This document shows positions 8,662 through 56,703 of a stretch of 64,000 nucleotides of DNA, in pieces. The DNA comes from Candidatus Omnitrophota bacterium (GTDB taxonomy: Bacteria > Omnitrophota > Gorgyraeia > Zapsychrales > Fredricksoniimonadaceae): positions 987-64,986 of the forward strand of contig JADFZK010000010.1 in assembly GCA_015232565.1 (NCBI GenBank), given 5' to 3'. Both the position numbers and the translations under genes were made by a program. The notes beneath the pieces were generated by a model. That model worked only from the letters and a program-made list of their open reading frames with translations, was not told where the DNA came from and did no database searches. Each line of letters begins with the position of its first letter. Position 1 is the stretch's first letter.

Positions 8662-9288
8662 TCATTTCCGCCCGGTGATCAAGAACACACTGAAGACCCT
8701 TTCCTGCCCTTCGGCATCCGCCTTGCAGATCTGCGTGGCCTTGGAACAAGAAACCTCCCGAAAGCCGACCACCTCAAGCAAACGCACCAGTTGCACCCGG
8801 TCAAAACCAAGATGGAACACCCCGTCGTGGGAATCATGAAACCGCCCATCCTCCACATCCAGGTCCGCCAGGGCCAGGTGCCCGCCGTCTTCCAGGACTT
8901 TGTAAAACTGCTCCACCAGCATCCGGGTATCCTTCACATGATGCAAAGTCATACTGCTCATAACCAGATGATAACTTCCGGACAAACGCTCGTTCAGCGT
9001 AAGGTCCAGCAAATACGCCTTCATATTGCCGCCGCCGTGCTGGCGGGCCTTGGCCAGAAATACATCCAGCATACCCTTTGAAGTATCTACCCCCGTAACC
9101 GAACGCACCAGAGGGCGAATGTTAAACGACAAAAGCCCGGTGCCACAACCAAAATCGAGGACATCCATTCCCTCTTTTAAGCCCACCTGCCGCATTATTG
9201 CCGCGGCCACTTCTTTCGCCAGATTCGTCCTGAGGGGTGAATCATCCCAGGACTGGGCGTCTTTATCAAAATCCCGCACTTTCGTCAT
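8662..9288 (-). CDS. Class I SAM-dependent methyltransferase
   Basis: It has the motif-I sequence VLDFGCGTGLL and the overall Methyltransf_11/25 layout. Confidence 0.85.
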   Translation of the reverse strand: MTKVRDFDKDAQSWDDSPLRTNLAKEVAAAIMRQVGLKEGMDVLDFGCGTGLLSFNIRPLVRSVTGVDTSKGMLDVFLAKARQHGGGNMKAYLLDLTLNERLSGSYHLVMSSMTLHHVKDTRMLVEQFYKVLEDGGHLALADLDVEDGRFHDSHDGVFHLGFDRVQLVRLLEVVGFREVSCSKATQICKADAEGQERVFSVFLITGRK

Positions 9289-9427: not shown

Positions 9428-10336
9428 TCAGGTGAGGGTATAAGGATTGCCGGTATTTAGCGCCGCCGGAATAAACGGATTCGCCCCCGCCCCGCCCTGG
9501 CCGGCATTAGGCGTACCGCTATTCAGCAAGGCCAGCGCCCGATTGATCGGCGTGGCATAACCGATACCCATATAGTTGTTCTCGGTAGCGCCGGCGGAGT
9601 TATTCACCCCCACCACCTCGCCCTTGATATTCACCAGCGGGCCGCCGCACGAACCCGGATAGATATTGATGTTCGTACGGAACTTGTTACTAAACTGCAG
9701 TCCAGCTACCGTGTAGGAATAATTATTATCGATGATCATGCCCGTCGCCATCAGGTTGCCGGTGCCGAAAGCATTGCCGGTGGCAAACACAATATCGCCG
9801 CGGTCCACCAGGTCGGAATTGCCAAATATGCCGACAGACTGAAAGTCCACATTGTTGGTTACCTGCAAGACCACCAGGTCACTGGCCGCGTCCCGCCGGC
9901 AAACTGCCACCGGATAACGCACCGGTTGAGCCCCGCTGGTCGCCACGAACAAATCACCGCCGCCCTGCACAATGTGCGCATTGGTCAAAACTATTTGCCG
10001 GGAAATGATCACGCCCGAACCCAGCAACTGCGGCTGGGCCTGGCCGGCCAGGTTAACATAAATGCTGACGGTGATGCGGTTCATGACATCCGCCACCTGG
10101 TTATAGGTATTCTCCAAAGCCCCGGTATTCATACCCGGCGCGGCTCCGGCCATGATCTGCCCGCCGCCCTGAGCCGGCGCAATAGCCACCGGTCCCGGTA
10201 CGGCTGTAACGGCCTGCCCCTGGGGGCCCGCCGCCGCGGCCTTGGGCCTGGACGAACAAGCCACCACCGCCAAAAGCACCAGCACACCCCCCGCCCAAAG
10301 CCATAATATTTTTTGTGAATCGTCTTTCTTCATCAC
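9428..10336 (-). CDS. Membrane-anchored trypsin-like (S1C/HtrA-type, no PDZ) protease paralog with Cys at the nucleophile position
   Basis: His is at LTNAHIV and Asp at ASDLVVLQ. At the position aligning with the canonical nucleophile motif GNSGGPL the sequence reads PGSCGGPLVN. The paralog at 15966..16892 has GSSGGPL there. Confidence 0.7.
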   Translation of the reverse strand: MMKKDDSQKILWLWAGGVLVLLAVVACSSRPKAAAAGPQGQAVTAVPGPVAIAPAQGGGQIMAGAAPGMNTGALENTYNQVADVMNRITVSIYVNLAGQAQPQLLGSGVIISRQIVLTNAHIVQGGGDLFVATSGAQPVRYPVAVCRRDAASDLVVLQVTNNVDFQSVGIFGNSDLVDRGDIVFATGNAFGTGNLMATGMIIDNNYSYTVAGLQFSNKFRTNINIYPGSCGGPLVNIKGEVVGVNNSAGATENNYMGIGYATPINRALALLNSGTPNAGQGGAGANPFIPAALNTGNPYTLT

Positions 10337-10373
10337 CGCGCCCCCTTTTGGTTACTCTTGACTGACCAATCTT

Positions 10374-12296
10374 TTAGACCCTAACCAGCCTTCGGCCCTT
10401 GCCTTCGCGGACAGTGACCCCCTGCTCATCAAAATACTCCAGTATTGGCACCGCCTGGTTACGGGAAAAACCGGTAACCTGCCGGAACGCTCCCAACTCC
10501 ACCACCGGACATTTCTCAAACAAAACTTTAAGCTTTTTAAGGCCGGCATTCACCTCGGCCGCCGACAGCAAATAATGATCCGCCGCCACCACCAGCCCCT
10601 CCTCGATCAACAGCCGCACCAGGAACTGCATTTCCTGGTCGGTAGCATTCAACCGGGCCTGCAGGGGCGCATACGGCGCCACGCCGTGTTCCGCGCCCAG
10701 CACCGCTTTTAAGATCAGCTCCTTCTGCACCTCCTGCCGGGCGCTCAACTCCGGGCTGTAGCCTCTTAAAGCCAGAACATTCTTCTCGACCACAATACGT
10801 TCACTATCCAGAAAAAGCGCCCGGATCCCGTCCCAACAAGCCGGATCCAGCCCCAGTGCGGAGCAGGCCTGCGCGCCGGGCATACCGCGGGCCGCCTTAT
10901 TGTCTTTATGATAACGGGCCAGTACGGCCGCCAGTTTCTCCTCCAGTTCCGCCACCCGATCAGCGGCAATCCACTGTGCCGGACCGACCGGCCGAAGAAC
11001 CCCGGCTTCCACCTTGGCAGCGACAATAGCCCGGCTGTTAACATTACCCGCCAACCCGGGCAGCACGCTGGAGTCAATGATCGTAAAACAACCCGCCAAA
11101 AGCTCGCTTTGAAACGGATCCTGCCCGGCGGCCGCCTGCCGCGCCCGTTCCAGCCTTTCCGGCGTCAAATAGGCCTTCTTCCGGCGCGGATCCACATTAC
11201 AGCTCAGGATCACCCCGCCGGCAATAGTCGCCGCCGGAGAAAGTGTGCGCAAAAGGAACCGGTCGCCCGCCGCCACCACCATCGGCTCGCCGGACTCCAC
11301 CTGCATGAACCCCTCCTCGCCGGGGCCCAGCGTATTGCGCCCCGTCAACAAACCCCACACCACCCGGGTAAACGTGCCGCAACAAAAACGCATTTCCTGC
11401 CGACGCTTGATGACCGCCGATTCATGCACATTGCGGACCGCCAGCACCAGCGCACCGGTCTCCTTAAAAACACCCGGTGCCGCCAGCGTCATACCGCGCT
11501 TGATGGCCGACGCCTTTATATCCCGGATAGTAATGGCCGAACAGGTATGCGCCTCGGCCTCCCGGGCATCATAACCATATTTCTGCACCGCCCGGCAAGC
11601 CGTGGCCACCGGGCCGGGAAAAAGTTCCAGCTTATCCCCCACCGCACAGCGCCCCGACAAAGGTATCCCGGTAACCACCGTTCCCACGCCCGGCGGAGAA
11701 AAAACCCGCTCGATATCCATGCGGAACGCCCGTTCGGCCGCCGGCGCCCGGGACACCACGCCCACCAGGCGCTCGATCTCCCGGCGCACATCCTCCAGGC
11801 CCTCGCCCGTCCGGTTGGACAGCAAAACCACCCGGGCCGGGCCAAAACCGTTGGCCGCCAGAAAAGCCGCCACCGCTTCTTTAACTTCCTGCTGCCGGGC
11901 AGACGTTACCAGGTCGATCTTGGTGATCACCGCCATTACTTGCGGCGCACCCAGCAAACTGACGATCTTTAAATGCTCGACCGTTTGCGGCATAATGCCG
12001 TCGTCGGCAGCCACTACCAGCACCAGCACATCAATAGCCGACGCCCCGGCCACCATGTTCTTGATAAAATCTTCATGCCCCGGCACATCAATAATACCCA
12101 CCATCCGCTCGCCCGAAAGCCGGCAGGGCGCAAAGCCCAGATCGATGCTCATCCCCCGCTGTTTTTCCTCGGGCAGGCAGTCGGTATCGCAACCGGTCAA
12201 CAATTTAACCAGCGCGGTCTTGCCGTGATCCACATGCCCGGCAGTGCCCACCATTACCGGCACGACCCTTAATTCCTGTTGACCCGGCACGCTCAT
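10374..12296 (-). CDS. selB: Selenocysteine-specific elongation factor SelB
   Basis: The GTP-binding motifs GTAGHVDHGKT and DVPGHEDF are present. A long C-terminal extension with winged-helix-like repeats follows. The gene is adjacent to selA and tRNA-Sec. Confidence 0.9.
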   Translation of the reverse strand: MSVPGQQELRVVPVMVGTAGHVDHGKTALVKLLTGCDTDCLPEEKQRGMSIDLGFAPCRLSGERMVGIIDVPGHEDFIKNMVAGASAIDVLVLVVAADDGIMPQTVEHLKIVSLLGAPQVMAVITKIDLVTSARQQEVKEAVAAFLAANGFGPARVVLLSNRTGEGLEDVRREIERLVGVVSRAPAAERAFRMDIERVFSPPGVGTVVTGIPLSGRCAVGDKLELFPGPVATACRAVQKYGYDAREAEAHTCSAITIRDIKASAIKRGMTLAAPGVFKETGALVLAVRNVHESAVIKRRQEMRFCCGTFTRVVWGLLTGRNTLGPGEEGFMQVESGEPMVVAAGDRFLLRTLSPAATIAGGVILSCNVDPRRKKAYLTPERLERARQAAAGQDPFQSELLAGCFTIIDSSVLPGLAGNVNSRAIVAAKVEAGVLRPVGPAQWIAADRVAELEEKLAAVLARYHKDNKAARGMPGAQACSALGLDPACWDGIRALFLDSERIVVEKNVLALRGYSPELSARQEVQKELILKAVLGAEHGVAPYAPLQARLNATDQEMQFLVRLLIEEGLVVAADHYLLSAAEVNAGLKKLKVLFEKCPVVELGAFRQVTGFSRNQAVPILEYFDEQGVTVREGKGRRLVRV

Positions 12297-13687
12297 TACA
12301 GCTCTCCCCTGGCCAGGCACTGCAATTGCCGGGCCACCACCAGCTCTTCGCCCGCAAACAAGGTGCGCATATCAAAATATAAAGCGTTAGCCTTGACCCG
12401 GCAGAACACCGAAGGCAAGCCGGCCCTGAGATATTCCGCCGCCGCTTCCACTCCCGGCAAGCCGGCTTCGGCCTGAGCAAAACTGACCCGCACCACCCGG
12501 GTGGGTATGCCCTCATCGGGCAAGGACCCGCTGCCAACATACGCCACATCATCTTCCACCACCGCCGTAACCCCGGGCTCGGCGGCCAGGGCCCGCACAA
12601 GGACCGCCGCCCGCGCATCCAGCTCCGGGCGGGACACACTTAACATCTGGTAGAAAGGCAAAGCCTCGCGGTAAGTGTCATTTACAAAATGCAATAAGGT
12701 GGCCTCCAGCGCCGCCAGGGTAAGCTTGCACACCCGGAACATCCGCGCAAAAGGATTCCGGCGTATGCGCTCGATATATTCTTTTTTACCGCAAATGATC
12801 CCCGACTGGGGGCCGCAGATCAGTTTGTCGCCGCTAAAACACACCACTGCCGCTCCGGCGGATAACGAGGCCCGCACCAGCGGCTCATCGGCCAGGCCAA
12901 AGCCCGACAGCGGCACCAGCGACCCACTGCCGATATCGTCTATTACCGGCAGGCCCTTCTGCCGCCCCAGCCCGCACAGGCCGGCGATATCCGGCACGCC
13001 GGCAAAACCGCGCACCCGGAAATTGGAAGTATGCACATGGATCAAGGCGCCGGTATTCTCGTTGATCGCCCGCTCATAATCATGCAAATGCGTGCGGTTG
13101 GTGGTGCCGACCTCGCGCATGCTGACCTGGCTTTGGGCCATCACATCCGGCATGCGGAATTCTCCGCCGATCTCAATAAGCTGGCCGCGGCTGATGATCA
13201 CCTGCCGGCCTGCCGCCAGGGTATTAAGCACCAGCATGGTAGCCGCCGCGTTATTGTTCACCACCGTTGCGGCCTCACAACCGGTCAGCTCGACCAGCAA
13301 CCGCTCCACTTTTTCCTCACGCAAAGAACGTTTCCCGGAAGCCAGCCCGGTCTGCAGGACCGAATAGGCCCCCATCCCGCCCAGCGCCGCCACCGCCTCC
13401 CGGCATAATGGAGAACGCCCCAGCCCGGTGTGCAGTAAAACGCCGGCCGCATTTACCGCCGCACGCCCCTCGGGAGCCGCCAGGCGCGTGAGCCGCTTGC
13501 GCAAACCGGCGGCCAGTTCACCATCCCCGGGAATACCGGCCAACGCCCCCGCATTTATCCGGGCGCGCAGGCCATCGAGCAAAGCGCGCAATTCCAGCTT
13601 GACCGCGCCATTGCCAAATTCCCGGCCCAGCGCGCGCACCGCATCGAGTTCCAATAATGCGGACACTGCCGGGATCTGCTTTAATAA
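12296..13687 (-). CDS. selA: L-seryl-tRNA(Sec) selenium transferase SelA (start uncertain, probably non-ATG)
   Basis: The motifs VVNNNAAA, LIEIGGEFRMPDVM, EVGTTNRTH and SFSGDKL are SelA signatures, including the PLP-lysine region. The first 41 codons of the listed ORF (12296..13810) overlap tRNA-Sec, so the real start must lie at or below 13687. A GTG at 13669 is one candidate. Confidence 0.85.
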   Translation of the reverse strand, partial: LLKQIPAVSALLELDAVRALGREFGNGAVKLELRALLDGLRARINAGALAGIPGDGELAAGLRKRLTRLAAPEGRAAVNAAGVLLHTGLGRSPLCREAVAALGGMGAYSVLQTGLASGKRSLREEKVERLLVELTGCEAATVVNNNAAATMLVLNTLAAGRQVIISRGQLIEIGGEFRMPDVMAQSQVSMREVGTTNRTHLHDYERAINENTGALIHVHTSNFRVRGFAGVPDIAGLCGLGRQKGLPVIDDIGSGSLVPLSGFGLADEPLVRASLSAGAAVVCFSGDKLICGPQSGIICGKKEYIERIRRNPFARMFRVCKLTLAALEATLLHFVNDTYREALPFYQMLSVSRPELDARAAVLVRALAAEPGVTAVVEDDVAYVGSGSLPDEGIPTRVVRVSFAQAEAGLPGVEAAAEYLRAGLPSVFCRVKANALYFDMRTLFAGEELVVARQLQCLARGEL

Positions 13688-13782
13688 TGGCGGAGGTGTA
13701 TGGGAATCGAACCCACCAGGGGCTTTATCAGCCCCGCGACAGTTTTGAAGACTGCGAGCATCACCAGACACTGAACACCTCC
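13688..13782 (-). tRNA. selC: tRNA-Sec (selenocysteine, anticodon UCA)
   Basis: The minus-strand sequence is GGAGGTGT...CTTCAAAAC...GGTTCGATTCC...ACACCTCCGCCA. It has an 8-bp acceptor stem, a TCA anticodon, a long variable arm, a G discriminator and CCA, and is 95 nt long. Confidence 0.85.
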
Positions 13783-13922
13783 ACAATGTGCCAATTCTCC
13801 GGTCCCACAATGGCCGGGAGAAGTTAATTTATACCAACTGAATAATTTGTTCCGTTACGCTTATACCGCACTGCTGATACCCCGGCTTGAGCGCCATTCC
13901 CGATGGCGCGCAAATTGGTCGT

Positions 13923-14252
13923 TCACCTGCCGTTGATCCGGTTTATCAGGTCCCCCGGCTGGATCCCGGCCCGTGCGGCCGCCGAACCCGGCTCTACCGA
14001 CACCACCGTACCCTTGCCCTCCAGGACCACACCCATCGGTAAAGTAAGCGTATTGGACCGCAAGGCCACCATCTGCATGGCTGAGCCCGCCGTGCTATTT
14101 ACTGGCGTGACCGGTATACCGGCCAACGGCCTTTGCGCCGCCGGCAGGCCAGCCGGACGCTGGGACACCACCCCGAACACCAGCAACAAAACCACCAGAA
14201 AAATGATCGCGTTCACTCTATGCGCTTCCAGGTAATCGAATATTTCTTTCAT
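13923..14252 (-). CDS. Small membrane-anchored PDZ-domain protein
   Basis: The likely start is MKEIFDYL. It has one TM segment (AIIFLVVLLLVFGVV) and a PDZ-like C-terminus (GVVLEGKGTVVSVEPGSAAARAGIQPGDLINRING). Confidence 0.55.
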   Translation of the reverse strand: MKEIFDYLEAHRVNAIIFLVVLLLVFGVVSQRPAGLPAAQRPLAGIPVTPVNSTAGSAMQMVALRSNTLTLPMGVVLEGKGTVVSVEPGSAAARAGIQPGDLINRINGR

Positions 14253-14292
14253 AGGATCTTTCTGGCCGCCCAGGCCGCTGATTAAATTATCC

Positions 14293-14763
14293 TCACTTAA
14301 CCGTGAACGTCTTGGAGAAACCCGTCGGCCCGCCGGACTCGGTGAGCTGTCCGCTGTTATATTTGGTAAGCGCCTCCTGCACATTATTGGCCAGGCCGCC
14401 GAACACCTTGACCCCCCGGCGCATCAAATGCTCAAAAGGCTCGGGCCCCACATTCTTGGCGATCACCACCCCCACCCGCTCGCGCACCAGCAGGCGGGCC
14501 ACATGCAAACCCGCCTCATGGGTGGTATTTACAAAACGATTGGCCACAAAGATCGCCGTATTATGCTTGAAATCATAGACCGCAAAATAGGGCGCCCGCG
14601 AGAACACCGGCGATACCGGCGACAACAGCGAAGGCTCATCGGCCGGCACGGCCACCACATAAGGGAACACATGCGGCCGGAACGACAAAAGCATTACCGG
14701 GCTGAACAGCAGAAAAACGATCGGGATCAGAAAGTGATACCAGCTCAGTTTGATCGGCCCCAT
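14293..14763 (-). CDS. Membrane-anchored NifX/NafY-like (dinitrogenase FeMo-cofactor-binding domain, PF02579-type) protein
   Basis: One TM segment is followed by YVVAVPADEPSLLSPVSPVFSRAPYFAVYD...GVVIAKNVGPEPFEHLMRRGVKVF. This matches the HFGRAP.F.IYD...GIG..A...L...GI.V pattern. The start is refined to MGPIKL at 14763, giving a TAATG overlap with the upstream gene. Confidence 0.6.
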   Translation of the reverse strand: MGPIKLSWYHFLIPIVFLLFSPVMLLSFRPHVFPYVVAVPADEPSLLSPVSPVFSRAPYFAVYDFKHNTAIFVANRFVNTTHEAGLHVARLLVRERVGVVIAKNVGPEPFEHLMRRGVKVFGGLANNVQEALTKYNSGQLTESGGPTGFSKTFTVK

Positions 14764-15650
14764 TATTTCCCCCCGCGTGTGGTCTTTTTTAACGCCAGCT
14801 CTCTTTGCGGCAGGGCGCTGACCAGTTTTATGTGCTTGCAATCCGTACACTCCAGGCAACGGATACAATCCTTCATGTTCGGATCCTCATATACCTTCAT
14901 GCCTTCGGGGCATTTCTTCTGGCAAAGGTTGCACTCGGTACACCCGTCATCAACCTTGAGTTTCATAATGCTGACTTTATTGAAGAACGACCAGAACAGC
15001 CCCATCGGGCAAATGTACTGGCAGAACGGGCGCTTGGAAACCACGAACAGCCACAGCACCACTCCCAATATCGCCAGCTTCAGCGCGAACAACCAGCCCA
15101 CCGAACCCGGCTCAATTGTCGGCGCGCCAGTAGTAGGATTGATCGGATTCCATAATATCCACGGAATACCGGCAGTCACCGTGCCTACCGGGCACAATTT
15201 GGAGAACCAGTGCTCGGTAGTCAGGAACGGCAGGATAATTATGAAAATGATCAACATGATCCACGGCAAAACGCCCCAGTAATACGGTATGTCGATCTTG
15301 ACCGACTTGATCTTGTAAACCATTTCCTGGAACAGCCCCACCGGGCAAACCCAGCCGCAAACCATGCGGCCCACCAGTAATCCCACGATCATCAAATGCC
15401 CCACCAGAAAAAACGGAAACTGGTGGATAGCCGAATAGTGTTGCATGACCCCCAACGGGCAGGCGAAAGCCGCCGTGGGGCAAGAGTGGCAATACAGGAA
15501 CGGCAGGCACACGCTCTTGAACAGCCCCGTATAGATCTGGTTCTGGTAGATCACCGCCACGTAAACATTGGTAATGATCAGCCCGAAGAACTGGGTGGCC
15601 CGCCTAAAAGGATGTAACAGATTCATAATACGCCCATTAATGGTTAACAA
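14763..15650 (-). CDS. NapH/MauN-type polyferredoxin membrane protein (4Fe-4S)
   Basis: It has multiple TM helices with CxxxCP motifs (CHSCP, CGWVCPVG, CPVG, CPMG). The C-terminus carries two Cx2Cx2Cx3CP ferredoxin motifs (CTECNLCQKKCP and CIRCLECTDC). Confidence 0.7.
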   Translation of the reverse strand: MLTINGRIMNLLHPFRRATQFFGLIITNVYVAVIYQNQIYTGLFKSVCLPFLYCHSCPTAAFACPLGVMQHYSAIHQFPFFLVGHLMIVGLLVGRMVCGWVCPVGLFQEMVYKIKSVKIDIPYYWGVLPWIMLIIFIIILPFLTTEHWFSKLCPVGTVTAGIPWILWNPINPTTGAPTIEPGSVGWLFALKLAILGVVLWLFVVSKRPFCQYICPMGLFWSFFNKVSIMKLKVDDGCTECNLCQKKCPEGMKVYEDPNMKDCIRCLECTDCKHIKLVSALPQRELALKKTTRGGK

Positions 15651-15726
15651 TACTCCGCCCTTGACCGCCTTGACCCGCCCGGGGCACCCGGCCCCGCACG
15701 GCTCACTGAATGCCGATACACGACAG

Positions 15727-15879
15727 TCAGAGCGTGGATGAAGTCTGATAATCCTCGAAAGGATTGCCCAGCATTATCCCGATCACCGACAGTACCACCC
15801 CCACCGCCAGCACGATCCAGAACATCCGGCCGTCATCGGGCCCGATCAGCAACATGATCTTTTTTAGCTTGTCACCCAT
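15727..15879 (-). CDS. Small (50 aa) membrane protein, not in the ORF track
   Basis: It is preceded by a GAGGGG Shine-Dalgarno site. The translation is MGDKLKKIMLLIGPDDGRMFWIVLAVGVVLSVIGIMLGNPFEDYQTSSTL, and it fills the gap between coupled genes. Confidence 0.35.
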   Translation of the reverse strand: MGDKLKKIMLLIGPDDGRMFWIVLAVGVVLSVIGIMLGNPFEDYQTSSTL

Positions 15880-15965
15880 AACACCCCTCGTAAAACCGTT
15901 CCCCGTTCCGCTTTTCCCTAACCGCTTTTACCAGTGCACACGGCACCGGATCAAATTGGCGCCCC

Positions 15966-16892
15966 TCAGGCCACCGGCAAGGCGAACTGTTTATCGGCCA
16001 GCGCACCTCCCGGATACTGGCCGCCAGCCAGCACCGCGCTATCGGCCGCCGGCACACCGCTCTTTTGCAAAAGCGCCAGCGCCCGATTGATCGGCATGGC
16101 AAAACTTATGCCTGTGAACTTGCCCTGCGGGTTATACACCGCCGTATTAATACCCACGATATCGCCGTTGATGTTCGCCAGAGGCCCGCCGCTGGACCCG
16201 GGATAAGTGTAGGACTCCGTACGGATCATATTGTGATAGGTCATCCCGCCCACCGAGAACGATTGCGTACGGTCGCACACCACGCCGGTGGTAAAAACAT
16301 TCCCCGAACCAAACGCATTACCCATGGCAAAGACCAGGTCGCCGGCGCTCACGTTATCGGAATTCCCCAGGTCGGCCGACGGCAGAACCGTAAGCGTATC
16401 GATCTTCATCAAAGCCAGGTCATTGGCCTTATCCGACAGCACCATACTGGCCGCATAAGTCATTTCGGTATTAGTCGGAGTATAAACCGTCACCTGGATG
16501 TCCGTGGCACCGCCCACCACATGATAATTGGTAAGCATATACTGGTCGGCGATGATCACGCCCGAGCCGCTCACCTGCTCCGGCACCCCGTTGATGACCT
16601 TGCCGCCGGTGATGCGGGCGCAAATATGGTTCATATTATGCGCGATGTTGTTATACACCTTCTCCAGCGAAGCCGCCGACAGCGTGGGCGCGCCGCTGGT
16701 GTAAACCGGGTGCTTATAACCGATCCAGTGTTCGGCCATCTCGATCTGGAACATATGCCAGGCCATATTAAAATTGGCCACTATCGCCACCGGAACAATT
16801 ATGCCCGTCAAAAAAATTATCCAGACCGACAATTGCACATTGTCGCTAATATTAAACCAAGCCTTATTCGGTTGCTCTTTAGGGGATATCAT
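15966..16892 (-). CDS. Membrane-anchored trypsin-like serine protease (HtrA-type catalytic domain, no PDZ)
   Basis: The real start is MISPKEQ... at 16892, which makes an ATGA overlap with the upstream ATPase gene. His is at LTNYHVV, Asp at ANDLALMK, and the nucleophile motif reads GSSGGPLAN. Confidence 0.8.
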   Translation of the reverse strand: MISPKEQPNKAWFNISDNVQLSVWIIFLTGIIVPVAIVANFNMAWHMFQIEMAEHWIGYKHPVYTSGAPTLSAASLEKVYNNIAHNMNHICARITGGKVINGVPEQVSGSGVIIADQYMLTNYHVVGGATDIQVTVYTPTNTEMTYAASMVLSDKANDLALMKIDTLTVLPSADLGNSDNVSAGDLVFAMGNAFGSGNVFTTGVVCDRTQSFSVGGMTYHNMIRTESYTYPGSSGGPLANINGDIVGINTAVYNPQGKFTGISFAMPINRALALLQKSGVPAADSAVLAGGQYPGGALADKQFALPVA

Positions 16893-17716
16893 TGGACCGC
16901 CTCCAGGAATTTGCCTACCTCGGCCGAGGCGCCCGCCGTGCGCCGCGCCTGCCCGCAGGCGATCAGCGCGGCACCCCGCGCCGCGGTCATCTGCGGCGCT
17001 TCCGCAATGATCACGTTCCGGTCGAGCGCGTCGGAAAGCGCCCGCGCCATGCCCGGGATCAAGGCCACCCCTCCGGTAAAGACCACCGGGCCGTTTACCC
17101 GGCCGGCCAGCATGGCCACAATGCGCCGGGCCACCGAATGCTGTACCCCGGCCGCCAGATTGGCCGGCGCCTCTTCCGCGGCCAGCAGGCCCACGATCTC
17201 GGTCTCGGCAAAAACCGCGCACATACTGCTGATGATCGACGGACACGCCGCTTTTTCGGCCATTGCTCCCAGATCCTTAAGTCCAGTTTCCAGCCGCACC
17301 GCCACGATCTCCAGGAACCGCCCGGTTCCAGCCGCACACCGGTCATTCATCACAAAATCATAAACCAGTCCCCGTTCGTCGAGCCGGATCACTTTACTGT
17401 CCTGCCCGCCGATATCTATAATGGTGCGCGCGTTCGGCACCTGCGCTATCACGCCATAAGCCTGGCAGGTAATTTCGGTCACCGCGGCATCCGCCCATTC
17501 GACGGCACTGCGCCCGTAGCCAGTAGCGATCACCCGGGAAACATCCTCGCGCCCCAGGCCCGCCTGGCCCAGAACCTGTTTAAAAAGATCATGCGCCAGG
17601 GCCGCCTGCCGCACCCCCTGGTCGCAGATCCCGGAGGCGATCAACTGCCCAAGACCCTCATCGATGACCACCACCTTGATAGTGCGCGAACCCACATCCA
17701 CTCCGGCATATAACAT
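16889..17716 (-). CDS. BadF/BadG/BcrA/BcrD-type ATPase (HgdC-like activator of 2-hydroxyacyl-CoA dehydratase-type enzymes)
   Basis: The motifs GVDVGSRTIK, TGYGR, IIDIGGQDSKVI, FVMNDRCAAGTGRFLE, CAVFAETEIV and FTGGVAL give near-collinear motif conservation with HgdC. Confidence 0.85.
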   Translation of the reverse strand: MLYAGVDVGSRTIKVVVIDEGLGQLIASGICDQGVRQAALAHDLFKQVLGQAGLGREDVSRVIATGYGRSAVEWADAAVTEITCQAYGVIAQVPNARTIIDIGGQDSKVIRLDERGLVYDFVMNDRCAAGTGRFLEIVAVRLETGLKDLGAMAEKAACPSIISSMCAVFAETEIVGLLAAEEAPANLAAGVQHSVARRIVAMLAGRVNGPVVFTGGVALIPGMARALSDALDRNVIIAEAPQMTAARGAALIACGQARRTAGASAEVGKFLEAVQ

Positions 17717-17719
17717 AAA

Positions 17720-19138
17720 CTACCGCTCTTTCCTTTGGTTCCTGACAGTTTCTACCAATGCTTCCAGCCGCGTCCGCAAAGTCCCCTGCAAAGGGTCACA
17801 GACCGAGGGCACTTCTATCTCCAGCACCGGACAATTCCCGGCCGCCGTCACTATTTCCCGAATAACTTCGCCCTCCAGGGCGCAGTGACTGGCCCCGGGG
17901 ATACGGGAAATTATCAAAGCCTCCGAACCAAAAGCGCGCATATCGCGCTGAATGCGTTGCGCCCGTTCCTGGGCCGTACCCGCCATCGGATCGGCCAGCG
18001 CCACGCGCGCCAGGGCTTCCAAAGGCGGAATATCATCCGGTATCTGGTCCAGGGCATGGGTAAACAAATAATCCGTCCCGCAGATCCGCCCGCCGCACTC
18101 CTCCAGCAGGTTCATAGCTTTCAGGTCGGCCACCGGGTTAACCCAGAACACCCGCACTGCGTCCCGGCCATGAAACCCCACCCCCCGCCCGGTCCGCTCC
18201 CGGACCGTGGCCAGTAACTCCTCCAACACCACCAGCGTTTCGGCGCGATCGGAACAATAATGCAAGGCCAGCATCTCGGCCACCAGCAACTCCAGGGCCG
18301 GCAAAGGCGCCAGCCCGGCGGTAAATACTGCTCGGCGCAATTCCGCCAGGCAAGACCGCACTTTATTGGCCTGATGGATACTGGCCGCCAGCATCCGGTC
18401 GGTCAGCTTGACATTGCACTGCATGGTAAAACCTGTTATTACGCGCGCCAGCTCGGCCTGGACAAAAGCCACCTGCCCGGCACCGGCCCGCGCACCGCCC
18501 GGCAATAACGCCGCTTTCTCACCCGGCTCAGGTTCCCGCCGTTGAGGCAGTTCCCACCACAATACCGGATGCCCCAGGCCTTCCACCCGCTGGGCGATCG
18601 CCGAAAAATCATCACAAGTCGCGCCCACACTGCAAACCAGCAGGTCCGGCCGCGGAAAATGCTCCCCGGAAACAAAAGCCCCCAGCATGGCGCGAACCGG
18701 ACAAAACGACTCGTCCACTCCCAGGCGGTCAGCGATCGCCAGCAAACCGGCATTGTCTTCCAGCAAACACGGCAGCCACCACGCTCCGTCCGGATAAAAC
18801 GCCACCAGATCCGGATAAGCGCAGGCAATGACCGGCACCGTACCCAGGTCTTTCATGGCCCCGATCAGTGTTTTACCGGCCAACCGGGCCTGGCGCAAAC
18901 GATCTTCCTCGGTCAGCAAAAAGTTCCACAGTTTAAGCGCCGCAAAAGAATTGTCGAACTGCAGCCGGGCCAGGCGCGTATTCCCGCTCCGCACATGCCG
19001 CCCCAGCAAACCGCCATAACCGGCGTCCCGGGGTTCCAATGACCCCGCGCGCTCGTAAGCCTCGTCCCATTCCTCCAGCGTGATCTGCCGTGGAACCGCT
19101 ACCGGGCCCAGCGCCCGCTCTGCCAGGCAAAGGCTCAC
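17720..19138 (-). CDS. 2-hydroxyacyl-CoA dehydratase / DCCP-like subunit (HGD-D family)
   Basis: Cysteine ligand-type motifs FCPVRAMLG, VGATCDDF and GASHCALE are present. The gene is coupled to the activator ATPase gene. Confidence 0.65.
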   Translation of the reverse strand: MSLCLAERALGPVAVPRQITLEEWDEAYERAGSLEPRDAGYGGLLGRHVRSGNTRLARLQFDNSFAALKLWNFLLTEEDRLRQARLAGKTLIGAMKDLGTVPVIACAYPDLVAFYPDGAWWLPCLLEDNAGLLAIADRLGVDESFCPVRAMLGAFVSGEHFPRPDLLVCSVGATCDDFSAIAQRVEGLGHPVLWWELPQRREPEPGEKAALLPGGARAGAGQVAFVQAELARVITGFTMQCNVKLTDRMLAASIHQANKVRSCLAELRRAVFTAGLAPLPALELLVAEMLALHYCSDRAETLVVLEELLATVRERTGRGVGFHGRDAVRVFWVNPVADLKAMNLLEECGGRICGTDYLFTHALDQIPDDIPPLEALARVALADPMAGTAQERAQRIQRDMRAFGSEALIISRIPGASHCALEGEVIREIVTAAGNCPVLEIEVPSVCDPLQGTLRTRLEALVETVRNQRKER

Positions 19139-20202
19139 CGTAAACCCTCCATAAAAGCCCCGATACGATTTCGGACACGCTCGTTCATTCTTCCGCCGTC
19201 CAACTCAATATCCAGCAACGGCACCTCCAGCGCCGCGCGAAAACGCTCGGCTTCTGCATGCCATTTATCGCACCACAAGTGGCGCACAAAAACCACCCCG
19301 CGCACTTGCCGGGACCGGACCGCTTTTTCCATCCAGGCGAAGATCCCGCTGTTCGGCCGCTGAAAAACATCGGGGATCGCGCGAAAATACGCTTCCGTCA
19401 ACACGCCGGTCGGGTCCTCCTTGATGCGCCGCAAATCAAGCCGCGCCGGAAAAGCCCGCTCTCCCGACTCGGTGCCGTTAAAGACCACTTCGGCGCCATG
19501 ATCGGCAAAAACATCAAACAAGTCGAACTGGCGCGCGGTTAAAGGCCCGCCGATAAAACCCACCGGGACCGAGCCCGCATACGGCCGCCCGCAAGCCAGG
19601 CCGGCGAAATTCTCGTCCCGCACCTTGCCGTTCTCGCCAAAAAACTGCAATTCACGCGCAAAATCACCAGCCGACAGATCGTTCTGGCGCGCCAACACCA
19701 TCCGGCGGTTAATATCGTATTCCAACAGTATCGACACCAGGCGCTCCGGCTCCACCCGTTTACCGCCCAGCGTTACACAAAAACGGCCCAGCCGCTCCAG
19801 CTCGGCGGCATATAACGCGCTAACCTCGGGCGTGCCGCAGGTGGACGGCACATTCATCAGAAAACACGGCACCTTAGTACGCAAATTTATCAGATCGGCT
19901 CCCCGGCGCATCTGGTCGCAAGTAGTTACCAGCACTACTCCCAGGACCTGGGGATCGCTTACGGCCTCGTTAATGAACCCGCGCATATATGCGCAAACCC
20001 CGGACTCCACACTCACCGGCGGCGCACCCGAGCCGCCACAAAAAGCACTGCCGCCGGAAGTCATCCGCCACGGCACCAGGCCATGCGCCGCTATCCATTC
20101 CGCCGGCACAAAAGGACTGGTAAAGATGATCTTTTTTCCCCGCCGCAAAGCCGTACCCGGACTATCCATGGTTGCACCCCTGGCGGCCTTTAACAGTCTC
20201 AA
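19135..20202 (-). CDS. HGD-D family subunit (smaller paralog)
   Basis: The motifs GVCAYMRGF, VTTCDQMRR and HLWCDKW are present. It overlaps both neighbours. Confidence 0.6.
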   Translation of the reverse strand: MRLLKAARGATMDSPGTALRRGKKIIFTSPFVPAEWIAAHGLVPWRMTSGGSAFCGGSGAPPVSVESGVCAYMRGFINEAVSDPQVLGVVLVTTCDQMRRGADLINLRTKVPCFLMNVPSTCGTPEVSALYAAELERLGRFCVTLGGKRVEPERLVSILLEYDINRRMVLARQNDLSAGDFARELQFFGENGKVRDENFAGLACGRPYAGSVPVGFIGGPLTARQFDLFDVFADHGAEVVFNGTESGERAFPARLDLRRIKEDPTGVLTEAYFRAIPDVFQRPNSGIFAWMEKAVRSRQVRGVVFVRHLWCDKWHAEAERFRAALEVPLLDIELDGGRMNERVRNRIGAFMEGLR

Positions 20203-21361
20203 ACAACGATTGCACCCGCAAACTCAACCGGGCGTTATCGGAGGGCGAATAATCTGTCTCGATCTTCAGGTAAGGCATTCTCAGCTTGTCCTCGGCCAGC
20301 GCCTTAACGGCCTGGGCTTCTATATCGTAAGTCAGGCAGGTCCGCCAGACCACTTCGATCACACACTCCGCCCGGTATTCCCCGGCCAGAGCCTCCAGCC
20401 GCTCCAACCGCCGGTCGTTAGGCGTCATCACCGAACAGGGCAAATGAAAATATTTCGCCGCTAGCGCCCGTAACAGGTCCGGGGCATCAATGTCAATATC
20501 TTCCAGCACCGGCTTCTCGCCGGAACAGCTCTCCTGGCACACCACCAGCCCGCCATTATCCTCGATCAGGCCCAGCACGCGCTCGGCGCCGTGCGGCAAA
20601 GGCACGCCCGTCAGCAAAACCCGCACGCGCTTACCGGCCGCCGGCTTTATTTCCCGTCCGGCCAACCAGGCCGCGGCTTTGGAATACTGCTCGTGATCTT
20701 GCGGCAAACCGGCGATCAGGCTTCTCATCCCCAGCAATTCACGCCCGGTCAACGGCGGGCAAGCGCTTTGCATCAACCCGGCCAGCTCCCGCTTAAGGCG
20801 GCGGTCGCGATTCATTACCACGACGGCTTCTTTAAGCTTCTCATCCGTGATCTCAACCGCAAAACGTGCTTCCAGTTCTTTCCGCAACTTTCTCAGCTCG
20901 GCCACCCAATGCTCAAAAGCATCGGCATCGCGGGATTTTTGCGGCAATTCCAGCACATACATCGGATGCCGCTGGCCCAGCAATTCATACATTTTCTTTT
21001 TTCCGTCACAAGTGGTCTCCGCCACCACCAGACTGGCCATTTCCAGGAACGGATTGGCTTTTTCCAGGCTGTACCCAAAAGTCGACTTGATCAACGGACA
21101 AAGATTGGCCGGCAAAACCCGCTCCGCCGGCTCTACCATTTCCGCCGACCCGCCGCATAAGCACACCGGCACGCCACCCGCGGCCATGATCAGCTCCCGG
21201 GGGGTGAATTCACACATGATCCCCACGACCGGCGCCCCCTGGCTTTTACGCAATCGGGCATACGCCAGGCAATTCTGCACTTGGCCGGCAAAATGCTCCA
21301 GCGGACCGCCGTCCTGCGCCCGCGCCACCACCTGATCTTTTGTTCCGCAACATCCGGCCAT
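20162..21361 (-). CDS. HGD-D family subunit
   Basis: The motifs VGIMCEFTPRELIMAAG, ETTCDGKKKMYELL, CQESCSG and WRTCLTYD are present. Confidence 0.65.
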   Translation of the reverse strand: MAGCCGTKDQVVARAQDGGPLEHFAGQVQNCLAYARLRKSQGAPVVGIMCEFTPRELIMAAGGVPVCLCGGSAEMVEPAERVLPANLCPLIKSTFGYSLEKANPFLEMASLVVAETTCDGKKKMYELLGQRHPMYVLELPQKSRDADAFEHWVAELRKLRKELEARFAVEITDEKLKEAVVVMNRDRRLKRELAGLMQSACPPLTGRELLGMRSLIAGLPQDHEQYSKAAAWLAGREIKPAAGKRVRVLLTGVPLPHGAERVLGLIEDNGGLVVCQESCSGEKPVLEDIDIDAPDLLRALAAKYFHLPCSVMTPNDRRLERLEALAGEYRAECVIEVVWRTCLTYDIEAQAVKALAEDKLRMPYLKIETDYSPSDNARLSLRVQSLFETVKGRQGCNHG

Positions 21362-21390
21362 CCAGCACTCTTTCTTTACACCAGCCCCGG

Positions 21391-22983
21391 TTAACTTTTA
21401 GCAGCCTTGTCCCGGCAGGCCTGAAGGCACTCGCCATAGAACATTTTGACCGGCGCCCCGCCCACCAGGACCGCGCACCACATAACCTCGTCGAGCTCGG
21501 CGGGCGTAATGCCCATGGCCAAAGCTTTAGCGTAATGCAAATTAAAACAACCATGACAGCGCTGGAGCAAAACCAGCGCGAACAAGATCAATTCTTTGGC
21601 CCTTTTATCTATCACCCCGCTCGCCGTTACACTGGCCACCAGGTCGCCAAATGCCTTGGCCGATCCATTAGCCGTCGAAGCTAACCCTGCCGAAGCCGCG
21701 CCTTCCGCCATGCCCGTACAGCAGCACGCCGGCTCTTTATGCCCATCCTGTTTTTTATCCCCGCTCATTGCGCCCTCGCTTTTAGTCATCACCAGTTCAA
21801 TAGCCCCGCACCGGGCCGCCACCACTTCGCCTATCACCGCCGCGCCGGCACCGCGCGCTTTAAGTTCGCTCACCAACTCGCCCAAACGCGCCAGCGGTAC
21901 AGCTATCATCAGGCCGCCCGAAGTCTCGGCGCCCAATCCCAAATATTTATATTCATTGCCCACATCGGCGTCAGCGCATAATTCTGCGCCCACGAACTCC
22001 GCGTTACGCTCGCTGGCCCCGGATATAACCCCGGCCCGTAACAGGTCCAGCGCTCCGGAAAAGGCCGGCAAAGCATCCGCGTAGACCCGGGCCGCGGTGC
22101 CGGAATGACGCATCATGCGCAATAAATGCCCGAACAACCCAAACCCGGTTATGTCGGTGCAAGCCGAAACGCCCACCTTGACCATTGCCGCGGCGGCTTC
22201 CTTATTAAGAAGCATCATGGACTGTTCAGCCTCCAGTAACCCGGCCGCATGCTCCCGCCCTAACTGGCGCGCAAAAGTCAGGACCCCGGTGCCCAGCGGC
22301 TTGGTAAGCACCAGCACATCGCCCGGCCGGGCCGTTTCCAGGGCAACCGCCGCACCGTTCAAGATCTCCCCGGTGATGGCGAACCCCAGCTTGACCTCGG
22401 TATCTTTAATGCTATGCCCGCCCAGCAAAGCGCAGCCGGCGCTGGCCAGTGTTTCCATAGCGCCTTTTAACATCAGGAACATGATCTCTTTATCGTGAGT
22501 TTCTACCGGGAACGCCAGAATGCTCAGCGCAGTACGCGGCACCGCGCCCATGGCATAAATATCAGAAAGGCAATTGGCGGCGCAGATCTTGCCGAAGGTT
22601 AACGGGTCATCTACGCAAGGAGTGAAAACATCCACCGTCTGGACCAGCGTGGTGCCGGCATTGATCCGGTAAACACCGGCGTCATCCGCGGCGGCCAGGC
22701 CGGAAAGTACAGCGGGATCATCGACCGCCGGAAGGCGCGCCAGCAAGCCCTCCAGGTCGGCCGCCGGGATCTTGGAGGCGCAACCCGCGCTTGCGCTCAT
22801 GGCGGTCAGCTTGACACTGGCAATATCCACCGGAGTCGGCCGCTCGCCGGCACAAGGGCACAGGTCACATTCCAACAAGCTCGCGCACGGACAGGCCTGC
22901 TGGACATCACAAATGCAATGCCCCAGCGCCCTGGAACGCCCCATAACCCGGGCGCGAATCGTGTGTTTATTGTTTTCTGCCAT
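21391..22983 (-). CDS. selD: Selenide, water dikinase (SelD, Cys type) with Cys-rich N-terminal extension and C-terminal AhpD/CMD-like domain
   Basis: The SelD core includes MSASAGCASKIP, which aligns with the active-site GCGCK, and a PurM-like fold. The N-terminal ~55 aa are Cys-rich (HCICD..CPC..CDLCPC). The C-terminal ~110 aa carry an AhpD-like CxxC-type motif (LQRCHGCFNLHYAKALAMG). Confidence 0.8.
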   Translation of the reverse strand: MAENNKHTIRARVMGRSRALGHCICDVQQACPCASLLECDLCPCAGERPTPVDIASVKLTAMSASAGCASKIPAADLEGLLARLPAVDDPAVLSGLAAADDAGVYRINAGTTLVQTVDVFTPCVDDPLTFGKICAANCLSDIYAMGAVPRTALSILAFPVETHDKEIMFLMLKGAMETLASAGCALLGGHSIKDTEVKLGFAITGEILNGAAVALETARPGDVLVLTKPLGTGVLTFARQLGREHAAGLLEAEQSMMLLNKEAAAAMVKVGVSACTDITGFGLFGHLLRMMRHSGTAARVYADALPAFSGALDLLRAGVISGASERNAEFVGAELCADADVGNEYKYLGLGAETSGGLMIAVPLARLGELVSELKARGAGAAVIGEVVAARCGAIELVMTKSEGAMSGDKKQDGHKEPACCCTGMAEGAASAGLASTANGSAKAFGDLVASVTASGVIDKRAKELILFALVLLQRCHGCFNLHYAKALAMGITPAELDEVMWCAVLVGGAPVKMFYGECLQACRDKAAKS

Positions 22984-23123: not shown

Positions 23124-23708
23124 ATGAAGACTTACAACCAGACCACGGCGGCTTGTTATATTTACACTTTCAAGAAGGGCCTGCTCTCTGCTTTGGCCCA
23201 TGACCTGAAGATCCAAGTTTTTAAGTTTGAGATAAAAACCACTGGCAGTACGAAGGATACCGCGGACTGGAAAAACATTGAGGCCAGGTTTGATGCCGCC
23301 AGCCTACGCACTGTTTGCGCCATGAAGGACGGCGCGCGCTCTCCGGCAAAACTGTCGGATCAAGACAAGCGCGATATTGACCGGAACATCATTAATGCGG
23401 TTTTACACTCGCAGGAATTTCCCGGCATCACCTTTCGCTCCAGCAGTATTACCCGGCGAAAATCCGGCGTGGTTATCAAAGGCGCACTGACCATTTGCGG
23501 CCAAACCCGCACCATTACTCTCCCGGTCCAGGAATTAAATACCTGTTATCGCTCCGAACTGGTCATCGACCAGCGCGACTTTGGCATCCAGCCCTTCAGC
23601 GCCTTAATGGGAGCAATGCAAATTAAGCCGGAGATCATCGTGCGGATCGAGCTGGGTAAGGTTACGGCGAAGGCACCGCTATCGGAGCATTGTCCGACAG
23701 ACCCATAA
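23124..23708 (+). CDS. YceI-like periplasmic/lipid-binding domain protein
   Basis: ITFRSSSI...GVVIKGALTICGQTRTITLPV resembles the conserved core of the YceI family. The 3' end overlaps the convergent giant gene by 47 nt. Confidence 0.5.
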   Translation: MKTYNQTTAACYIYTFKKGLLSALAHDLKIQVFKFEIKTTGSTKDTADWKNIEARFDAASLRTVCAMKDGARSPAKLSDQDKRDIDRNIINAVLHSQEFPGITFRSSSITRRKSGVVIKGALTICGQTRTITLPVQELNTCYRSELVIDQRDFGIQPFSALMGAMQIKPEIIVRIELGKVTAKAPLSEHCPTDP

Positions 23709-31273: not shown

Positions 31274-31298
31274 CCGTTCCTTGTATTAAATTGCGCCA

Positions 31299-33361: not shown

Positions 33362-33365
33362 AAAC

Positions 33366-33497
33366 CTACTCCAGTCCAATGCAGGCCATACACATGGTCG
33401 CGCCGTTATTTTGCGTTTCCAGCGCATCGTTAGCGCTGTCGCCGATAAGGAATAAAATAAAGACCACAAAAAGAACCAGTATCACTTTTTTACCCAT
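33366..33497 (-). CDS. Small (43 aa) signal-peptide/membrane peptide, not in the ORF track
   Basis: It is preceded by a GGGAGG Shine-Dalgarno site. The translation is MGKKVILVLFVVFILFLIGDSANDALETQNNGATMCMACIGLE. Its stop lies 3 nt before the refined NapH-like start. Confidence 0.3.
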   Translation of the reverse strand: MGKKVILVLFVVFILFLIGDSANDALETQNNGATMCMACIGLE

Positions 33498-33528
33498 CCC
33501 CAACCTCCCGGTTCACACCCGCCAAATT

Positions 33529-37003: not shown

Positions 37004-37021
37004 ACAGACCTCATTACCCGA

Positions 37022-41526: not shown

Positions 41527-41575
41527 GCCTGAAACCTTACCTTAAATAAATCGTCAGCGCCAAAGCCTGTTACCC

Positions 41576-55852: not shown

Positions 55853-55859
55853 GCCAGGC

Positions 55860-56699: not shown

Positions 56700-56703
56700 A
56701 GAA

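Follow-up and report, generated by a model that had tools for sequence, protein, structure and literature searches.

A 64,000-nt stretch of a Candidatus Omnitrophota genome (assembly GCA_015232565.1, contig JADFZK010000010.1, positions 987 to 64,986; hereafter the window) carries on its minus strand a conserved, operon-like module, which we read as a probable selenoprotein module forming part of the magnetosome gene cluster in certain deep-branching magnetotactic bacteria. The module holds the genes for selenocysteine (Sec) insertion together with a small gene, here named PDZ-Sec, in which a PDZ domain is interrupted by an in-frame TGA codon. From sequence comparison we consider it very probable that this gene encodes a selenoprotein, with Sec insertion itself being inferred, and likely that a genuine PDZ selenoprotein and dedicated sel genes form a conserved module linked to magnetosome genes.

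As listed, the PDZ open reading frame (ORF; 13923..14384, minus strand) ends at a TGA at 13923..13925 in the middle of the domain, where it covers positions 2-28 of the 54 positions of Pfam PDZ_6. Past the TGA the frame continues for 32 PDZ-like codons (..INRINGR-[TGA]-TTNLRAIGNGAQAGVSAVRYKRNGTNYSVGIN) to a TAA at 13824..13826, 44 nt ahead of the gene for tRNA-Sec, and the PDZ_6 match both improves and lengthens when the TGA is read through. When in-frame TGA codons were scanned against the syntenic loci described below, only that at 13923 was conserved at high flanking identity (67-90%); this conservation-filtered scan also gave many off-frame artefacts, and it showed no comparable in-frame TGA elsewhere in the syntenic part of the window. 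The HGD genes of the same run were also considered as selenoproteins and were rejected, with their frames intact and no conserved in-frame TGA. A preliminary description of this stretch had by eye seen no obvious selenoprotein gene in it and had proposed a scan with a selenoprotein predictor. The conservation-filtered scan yields one convincing in-frame TGA, that of PDZ-Sec, beside tRNA-Sec and followed by a hairpin, and the earlier statement was wrong on this point. Reassignment of UGA was rejected for this genome: TGA is the ordinary stop of 18 of the 45 window ORFs, and the genome is thus not recoded.

PDZ-Sec loci were gathered by exact-protein look-ups, a scan of species-representative genomes (185,579 genomes) and a scan of metagenome contigs, giving a comparison set of 33 loci with 22 distinct sequences that includes genomes of 37% and 55-60% GC. 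Comparison loci are labelled L001-L040; L010 and L038 are sel loci without magnetosome genes, and L040 is the 37% GC genome. In addition to the Omnitrophota type, the set holds a second lineage with the NCBI label Syntrophus sp. or Deltaproteobacteria (delta type), represented by GCA_037138695.1, JACQYK01 and many JGI sediment contigs. The TGA stands at the identical column in all 33 loci, each of which has a second in-frame stop 31-37 codons further on, and two related Omnitrophota contigs carry it at exactly the matching place with the downstream peptide conserved. Codon-level alignment shows that the indel between the Omnitrophota and delta types amounts to 5 codons and keeps the frame. Codon-level and hairpin pairing comparisons were made on nine diverse PDZ-Sec sequences. 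Among these, the region downstream of the TGA has a synonymous difference (pS) of 0.59, which is near saturation, and a non-synonymous difference (pN) of 0.19 (pN/pS 0.32); of the 32 codons, 26 vary at the third position and 9 at the second. High third-position variation with little non-synonymous change shows purifying selection on these codons and argues that the stretch past the TGA is translated.

Protein databases were searched by words (5.8 billion proteins) and by a HMMER profile (1.84 billion cluster representatives). The word search gave 16 matches, and all 13 PDZ-Sec family members among them end at ..INRINGR/K. Among the best 150 of the 3787 profile matches, which were inspected, about 25 further small PDZ-Sec representatives were found, some of them less than 50% identical and all ending at ..INRING[R/K/Q/S/A]. 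No Cys-containing or other full-length form of PDZ-Sec was present in the 16 word-search matches or in the best 150 of the 3787 HMMER matches. Every database entry of PDZ-Sec stops at the UGA, and reading through this codon corrects the public annotation.

Downstream of the UGA, a hairpin is encoded within the read-through frame. In the Omnitrophota type the stem begins 13 nt and the loop 20 nt past the UGA, and folding lengthens the core stem GCGCCAU-[CGGGA]-AUGGCGC by three further pairs. Delta-type sequences contain a 12-nt insertion, and their hairpin is longer (6+8 bp), with a CGGGC/A loop 35 nt from the UGA (-20 to -31 kcal/mol). As a rule of thumb, the selenocysteine insertion sequence (SECIS) of bacteria has a spacing of 16-37 nt and a G in its loop, which the distances and loop G residues of both PDZ-Sec types fit. 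Across the nine sequences, 93% of cells are paired, compared with 18-51% for shifted partner columns. Compensatory changes occur at two pairs (U-A/C-G and C-G/U-A), and L040 shows an extra C-G to A-U change while still keeping a GC-rich stem at 37% GC. The hairpin is probably a SECIS element, with binding of SelB predicted.

It could be argued that the TGA is a true stop, that the PDZ ORF is a remnant or naturally short, and that the downstream conservation reflects a promoter or processing signal of tRNA-Sec. All gene callers give a protein of 97-179 amino acids (aa) ending at the TGA, and tRNA-Sec lies within ~140 nt downstream in the Omnitrophota loci. The hairpin adds points that tell against Sec insertion: its folding energy is ordinary for GC-rich sequence, so that by itself it is statistically unexceptional (z-score 0.17); an Rfam search around the UGA with a permissive E-value returned no SECIS family; and its covariation is modest, being limited because the hairpin doubles as coding sequence. 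Delta-type PDZ-Sec, however, is not followed by tRNA-Sec, yet its TGA, downstream frame and hairpin are conserved. The concentration of substitutions at third codon positions, the constant presence of the second stop and the frame-keeping indel all speak for translation beyond the TGA. Termination at this codon is also at odds with the longer PDZ_6 match on read-through and with the fact that a PDZ domain cut after the fourth strand would not fold. Taken together, we regard a true stop as highly improbable.

The machinery that Sec insertion requires is present as a whole in the window, comprising tRNA-Sec (anticodon UCA), SelA, SelB with its GTPase and C-terminal winged helices, and SelD (Table 1). 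The preliminary description had listed this complete set, a Cys-type SelD, and an interleaving with protease and Fe-S genes on one strand with tiny gaps. Family-level scores, the ..SAGCASK.. motif of SelD, the Pfam and NCBIfam matches of the neighbours and the spacing of the genes bear this out, adjacent genes of the minus-strand run 9428..22983 overlapping or sitting at most 140 nt apart. No convincing intrinsic terminator was found between the genes of the run; terminator and promoter counts were at the shuffled expectation, which speaks neither for nor against an operon. The selenouridine and selenium-cofactor genes ybbB, yqeB and yqeC, for which the preliminary description had suggested a search, had no match among the window ORFs by Pfam. 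A tRNA-Sec is found at the matching position in L002, L004, L008, L024, L036, L039 and L040. Besides its Cys-type active site, SelD has a Cys-rich extension at its N-terminus and an AhpD/CMD-like domain with a CHGC motif at its C-terminus. A 68-kb contig from a Ca. Omnitrophica metagenome-assembled genome (MAG) encodes a protein 100% identical to this SelD. The SelD-AhpD/CMD fusion is widespread, with more than 7000 proteins in Myxococcota, Armatimonadota, Verrucomicrobiota and other phyla.

Two observations on these proteins may be added. Fusions of SelD with AhpD/CMD are annotated plainly as SelD in databases, and the CMD domain found here is most like the AhpD-type selenoprotein families GSU3128, ArsM_AhpD_UU and MduS. 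In SelA, the conserved N-terminal motif LKQIPAVSALL has no canonical start codon between it and the 3' end of tRNA-Sec; the first GTG after tRNA-Sec, at 13666 on the minus strand, would cut into the motif, and for relatives, the SelA entries in databases either run into the tRNA (492-495 aa) or begin just past it.

Upstream of the module, a magnetosome cluster with magnetochrome domains extends from 28558 to 48214. Its best NCBIfam matches are to MamA, MamB, MamM, MamQ, MamE, MamP and MamO, all below the equivalog cut-offs, and the Pfam MCR (magnetochrome) model is above its cut-off in three window proteins. In the window, yceI and a 1585-aa ORF separate selD from this cluster. The latter ORF (23662..28419, minus strand), which lies between yceI and a PAS gene, has weak HEAT-like repeats and a lower GC content of 49-52%; it looks like a lineage-specific insertion, since L001 and L002 are without it and have PAS, yceI and selD adjacent. 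The preliminary description had the selenium genes directly abutting the magnetosome cluster. The cluster is real and nearby, but direct contact is broken in the window by these two genes, and for the delta-type lineage the wording was an understatement, as the sel genes there sit between magnetosome genes.

Gene order in the Omnitrophota module is SelD/CMD-DCCP-activase-Tryp1-50aa-NapH-NifX-PDZSec-tRNASec-SelA-SelB-Tryp2, where DCCP denotes a double-cubane-cluster protein and Tryp1 and Tryp2 are trypsin-fold proteins. This order is common to Cal1bin1, MBPbin6, nW3bin14, Ki2-D4_bin-0675, GCA_015233765 and GCA_015232235; two of these, Cal1bin1 and MBPbin6, have been published as magnetotactic MAGs (PMC5955933). 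The MAGs with the module include GCA_002753465.1 and GCA_024449895.1. Wherever the upstream flank is available in the Omnitrophota loci, magnetosome genes stand directly before PAS-yceI-selD. The delta-type module has the order SelD-DCCP-activase-NapH-tRNASec-SelA-SelB-Tryp2-PDZSec and lies between magnetosome genes, with MamI-MamE-MamQ-TauE..PAS before it and 124aa-140aa-MamI-MamE after it. In L040 the order is FeoB-Fur-FeoB-FeoA-magnetochrome-PAS-SelD-Tryp1-NapH-NifX-PDZSec-tRNASec-SelA-SelB-Tryp2. Compared with the window, SelA is 61-75% and SelB 52-75% identical in the module loci, and 44-45% and 35-36% identical, respectively, in L010 and L038, which are the nearest loci lacking magnetosome genes. 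The SelA and SelB of module loci are thus far closer to one another, which indicates that the sel genes travel with the module. The linkage between selenium genes and a magnetosome locus, called unusual in the preliminary description, holds: loci with a SelA of 61-75% identity carry the module, and magnetosome hallmarks where the flank suffices. It was also checked whether the sel genes of relatives form an ordinary core locus among unrelated neighbours, and this was not borne out.

Several protein-coding neighbours of PDZ-Sec also resemble magnetosome proteins. Tryp1 retains the catalytic Ser (GSSGGPL), the codon for which is conserved in all loci, and has no PDZ domain; its best NCBIfam matches are the Do family and MamE. 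Its start was set to the ATG at 16862 because the longer ORF overlaps the activase gene. In Tryp2 a Cys replaces the catalytic Ser (PGSCGGPL) while His (TNAHIV) and Asp (SDLVVL) are kept, leaving the Ser-type triad incomplete. This nucleophile codon is Cys (TGC or TGT) in every locus found by motif scan, and Cys is present in 41 of the 45 closest Tryp2 homologues. The nearest outgroup of Tryp2 is the MamE-Nter of magnetotactic Desulfobacterota (Desulfamplus, Ca. Magnetomorum), with Asp or Asn at the nucleophile position. In the delta-type loci, tryp2 is the gene immediately before PDZ-Sec. The NapH-like and NifX-like proteins of the module have paralogues in the magnetosome cluster, at 32519..33469 (42% identical to the NapH-like protein) and 33882..34592 (33% identical to the NifX-like protein). 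Orthologues of the NifX-like protein are 154-158 aa long. Those of the 50-aa membrane protein, at 64-86% identity, occupy the equivalent position in L001, L002, L004, L005, L011, L012 and L013. Downstream of the run, the methyltransferase and MerR flank is syntenic in L004, L012, L013 and L015.

Table 1. The selenoprotein module and its flanking genes (positions in the window)
Feature	Position	Strand	Evidence and remarks
MerR/HTH_17 regulator	7827..8414	+	Pfam; conserved downstream flank
S-adenosylmethionine (SAM) methyltransferase	8662..9288	-	Pfam; conserved downstream flank
Tryp2, exported HtrA/MamE-Nter-like trypsin-fold protein	9428..10336	-	Trypsin_2 73 bits
SelB, Sec-specific elongation factor	10374..12320	-	GTP_EFTU, SelB-wing_2, SelB-wing_3, SelB beta-barrel
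SelA, selenocysteine synthase	12296..~13666	-	PF03841 407 bits and Se-cys_synth_N; start uncertain
tRNA-Sec (selC)	13688..13782	-	ARAGORN, anticodon UCA; Rfam RF01852 75.1 bits, gathering score 47
PDZ-Sec, predicted selenoprotein, 142 aa	13824..14252	-	N-terminal membrane anchor and PDZ domain, Sec at residue 110
SECIS-like hairpin	13887..13913	-	UUG-C-GCGCCAU[CGGGA]AUGGCGC-U-CAA
NifX/NifB-C-like (Nitro_FeMo-Co) protein, N-terminal hydrophobic segment	14293..14763	-	PF02579 65 bits
NapH-like membrane polyferredoxin, CX3CP motifs	14763..15650	-	Fer4_5; NapH/MauN family below cut-off
Conserved 50-aa single-pass membrane protein	15727..15879	-	ORF; no Pfam match
Tryp1, membrane-anchored HtrA/MamE-like serine protease domain	15966..16862	-	Trypsin_2 98 bits
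ATP-dependent activase (HgdC/DCCP-R type)	16889..17716	-	PF01869 180 bits; TIGR00241 237 bits
HGD3, divergent HGD-D paralogue	17720..19138	-	PF06050 114 bits; NF040772 49 bits
HGD2, divergent HGD-D paralogue	19135..20202	-	PF06050 112 bits; NF040772 54 bits
HGD1, DCCP-type reductase	20162..21361	-	NF040772 389 bits, cut-off 350
SelD, selenophosphate synthetase	21391..22983	-	TIGR00476 305 bits; Pfam AIRS, AIRS_C, CMD

Genes of the window were typed by Pfam, NCBIfam, Rfam and PDB sequence comparison, and tRNA-Sec additionally by ARAGORN.

The co-localisation could be coincidental, with a housekeeping sel locus serving selenoproteins elsewhere (formate dehydrogenase, Hdr) and PDZ-Sec being one client with no magnetosome role. 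Several findings lean this way and so weigh against a magnetosome function of the module. The sel genes may serve further selenoproteins elsewhere in these genomes, the SelD-CMD fusion occurs across many phyla, and the downstream flank of L004 and L012 is housekeeping (Mla genes, pyruvate kinase). L010 and L038 have selA-selB-selD and a NapH-like gene adjoining tRNA-Sec in the absence of magnetosome genes, for which reason part of the association may concern selenium and not magnetosomes. L040 lacks DCCP and activase. In L039, PDZ-Sec is replaced by a PAS protein with a Cys-rich C-terminus (14923..15867), which shows that a module of this kind need not include the PDZ selenoprotein; this locus has feoAB upstream and no hallmark magnetosome gene within 8.5 kb upstream of selD or ~0.6 kb downstream. 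On the other hand, linkage to magnetosome genes recurs in at least three divergent groups (Omnitrophota of 55-60% GC, the delta type and the 37% GC genome), the NapH-like, NifX-like, PDZ and MamE-like genes of the module have paralogues in the magnetosome cluster, and the SelA and SelB sequences of module loci resemble one another far more than they resemble those of L010 and L038. The 185,579 species genomes yielded PDZ-Sec in five MAGs only, three of which are published magnetotactic MAGs (PMC5955933). Weighing these points, we find coincidence fairly unlikely, and we lean, if modestly, towards a functional tie of the sel module to the magnetosome cluster and an inferred role in magnetosome formation.

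The genes adjoining selD offer a second connection to selenium. The preliminary description had read them as an HgdC/HGD-D operon. The activase and HGD-D family genes are indeed there, but HGD1 is a DCCP by NF040772 and not a dehydratase. It matches PDB 6ENO and 7YYL at 1e-58 with the seven cluster Cys aligned (C50, C69, C88, C118, C279, C309 and C342), and the activase matches 4EHT (2e-55) and 7YYL_E (3.5e-40). A 2-hydroxyacyl-CoA dehydratase (HgdAB/HadBC) was rejected for HGD1, which scores 69.8 bits with the HadC model, whose cut-off is 700. Scores with the benzoyl-CoA reductase models also fall far short of the thresholds, and Pfam finds no CoA-transferase gene in the minus-strand run. HGD2 and HGD3 miss the NF040772 cut-off (350 bits); HGD2 has no PDB sequence match and is present only in the main Omnitrophota group, and HGD3 has a weak PDB match to DCCP (2.8e-5). 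Of the HGD-D paralogues, HGD1 alone is kept outside the main Omnitrophota clade, and it is the sole one in L008, L014, L015, L024, L036 and L039. Haft and Gwadz (bioRxiv 10.1101/2022.07.06.499078) found 955 of 970 strong NF040772 proteins in assemblies that contain SelD and proposed a link between DCCP and selenium; the selD-DCCP-activase adjacency fits this proposal.

These features raise the alternative that the module is mainly a selenium acquisition or detoxification unit, in which SelD-CMD, DCCP with its activase, and the NapH-like and NifX-like proteins process selenium and PDZ-Sec is a carrier or sensor. The published genome-wide correlation of DCCP with SelD and the direct adjacency of the genes here agree with such a role, as do the resemblance of the SelD AhpD-like domain to AhpD-type selenoproteins and the presence, in loci without magnetosome genes, of NapH-like genes beside tRNA-Sec and a candidate CxxU membrane selenoprotein. 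L040, however, is devoid of DCCP and activase and keeps PDZ-Sec, the proteases, NapH and NifX; PDZ-Sec is always accompanied by MamE-like protease domains and magnetosome genes; and neither a transporter nor a known reductase of selenite or selenate is part of the module. We judge this alternative improbable. The candidate just mentioned is a membrane-anchored ORF of 116-121 aa between tRNA-Sec and the NapH-like gene (L038, 11202..11552; L010, 12577..12942; both minus strand). With ..C-P-T-TGA at its end, then two codons and a stop, and a 6-7 bp hairpin ~15 nt past the TGA, it is a candidate selenoprotein with a C-terminal CxxU, and it suggests that membrane selenoproteins may in general have NapH-like partners.

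Returning to a module tied to magnetosomes, recoding would follow the established bacterial Sec pathway. SelD would make selenophosphate, with its fused AhpD-like CxxC domain probably handling the selenium substrate, and SelA would convert Ser-tRNA-Sec to Sec-tRNA-Sec. SelB would bind the GC-rich hairpin starting 13 nt past the UGA and deliver Sec at this codon, allowing the ribosome to finish the PDZ domain instead of terminating. DCCP and its activase, beside selD, would form an accessory unit tied to selenium. As read from the sequence, the PDZ-Sec N-terminus is an anchor in the Omnitrophota type and signal-peptide-like in the delta type, and Tryp2 has a lipoprotein-like signal; because of these N-termini, PDZ-Sec and its protease partners are probably extracytoplasmic. 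PDZ-Sec would then be an exported or anchored protein of the periplasm or magnetosome lumen, where it probably acts with Tryp1, Tryp2, the NapH-like polyferredoxin and the NifX-like protein.

PDZ-Sec most likely provides a selenol that is redox-active or handles metal. When aligned to solved PDZ domains, Sec110 comes right after the strand ..INRING, which presumably places it just ahead of the helix that lines the peptide groove. Three points make its role harder to assign and count against a redox function. The residue aligned with the Sec position in paralogous PDZ domains is Asp, Ser or Thr and no redox residue, PDZ-Sec has no Cys nearby within its own PDZ domain, and in the absence of a Cys homologue nothing calibrates the role of position 110. 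A selenol working with Tryp2 is favoured, since the PDZ-Sec domain is Cys-free and a Cys stands at the nucleophile position of its constant partner. The two could form a Cys-Sec pair, with NapH supplying electrons across the membrane, although redox-pair chemistry of Sec110 and Tryp2 in this specific form is doubtful. Alternatively, PDZ-Sec and Tryp2 may form a metal- or peptide-handling site for which the NapH-like and NifX-like proteins supply electrons or a cofactor.

Further observations concern the surroundings of the module. The window has two separate pairs of MamB/MamM-like CDF transporters (29478..31273 and 40618..42472, minus strand) and two NapH-like/NifX-like/PDZ sets, which points to a partial duplication of the magnetosome gene set in this genome. 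A magnetochrome protein beside the CDF genes (31299..32042 in the window, minus strand; 6091..7029 in L040) contains short repeats of the type QQVAF..PGC / NCLMYP..PGCP. Such repeats are also found in the variable linker of many PDZ-Sec orthologues (P0157, P0160, P0168, L002); the window PDZ-Sec is without Cys-containing copies. A CysPTWA-type sulfate/thiosulfate ABC transporter operon (53961..57726, minus strand) is located a few kb past the magnetosome cluster, and in L002 and L003 CysN/APS-kinase and sulfite-reductase-like genes are upstream of the magnetosome genes.

The module has counterparts among known systems. With the bacterial Sec-decoding system exemplified by E. coli fdhF it shares selA, selB, selC, selD and a stem-loop 3' of the UGA. 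It differs in that the client is a PDZ domain and no oxidoreductase, in that machinery and client are together in one operon-like run in or beside a magnetosome cluster, and in the AhpD/CMD fusion of SelD. The sole PDZ entry in current prokaryotic selenoprotein lists is Trx7/PDZ (NF041199, CxxU; PMC13188914, PMC9312934), likewise a bacterial selenoprotein containing a PDZ domain. Its Sec is in the CxxU of a thioredoxin-like domain, whereas that of PDZ-Sec would be within the PDZ domain (..INRING-R-U-TTNL..), with no Trx domain or nearby partner Cys. PDZ-Sec scores 21.7 bits with NF041199 against a cut-off of 300 and was rejected as a member of that family.

Tryp1 and Tryp2 resemble MamE, MamE-Nter, MamO and HtrA (DegP) in their trypsin fold and in their best named matches, the Do family and MamE, and having the protease domain and the PDZ domain on separate proteins mirrors the division of MamE into MamE-Nter and MamE-Cter. 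They differ in the Cys nucleophile of Tryp2, which is Asp or Asn in MamE-Nter relatives, in a PDZ partner that is predicted to contain Sec, and in lacking a magnetochrome domain. The NapH-like and NifX-like proteins of the magnetosome cluster (32519..34592) and of the module (14293..15650) recall the Mad6/Mad9-type Fe-S proteins known from deep-branching magnetosome clusters (roles per PMC9840458). The module copies are in a different order and are likened by gene type, not by orthology to named mad genes; a further difference is the presence of NapH-like genes beside sel genes where magnetosome genes are lacking. Compared with DCCP/DCCP-R (6ENO, 7YYL; NF040772), HGD1 passes the family cut-off with its seven Cys ligands, an activase alongside and selD adjoining. 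The differences are that the selD-DCCP link takes the form of gene adjacency inside a magnetosome-associated module, and that one clade has two extra, highly divergent HGD-D paralogues. DCCP has also been reported to be linked to the SAO selenoprotein locus (bioRxiv 10.1101/2022.07.06.499078), no genes of which are present here.

New here are the predicted PDZ-Sec selenoprotein family, which is not in current catalogues of prokaryotic selenoproteins, the conserved sel-containing composition of a magnetosome cluster, and the direct selD-DCCP adjacency; each of the three builds on systems of a familiar type. The literature searched contained no link between selenocysteine and magnetosome gene clusters. 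As far as we are aware, direct gene adjacency of selD and DCCP is also reported here for the first time. A bolder reading, which we hold to be less likely than not, is that magnetosome formation in these Omnitrophota and in the Desulfobacterota-like lineage may depend on selenium, through Sec machinery dedicated to one invariantly Sec-containing PDZ protein. This protein would work in the magnetosome lumen or periplasm with a MamE-like partner bearing a Cys nucleophile, in a redox or iron-handling step based on the selenol, and the unit would be inherited and transferred with the magnetosome genes. If the link is functional, the selD-DCCP adjacency would be the most direct gene-neighbourhood evidence so far tying double-cubane reductases to SelD, PDZ-Sec would stand for a selenoprotein family of a rare kind, lacking a Cys counterpart and acting outside the cytoplasm, and selenium would join the elements needed to build the magnetosome organelle. 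A need for selenium would also suggest a practical reason why these lineages resist cultivation.

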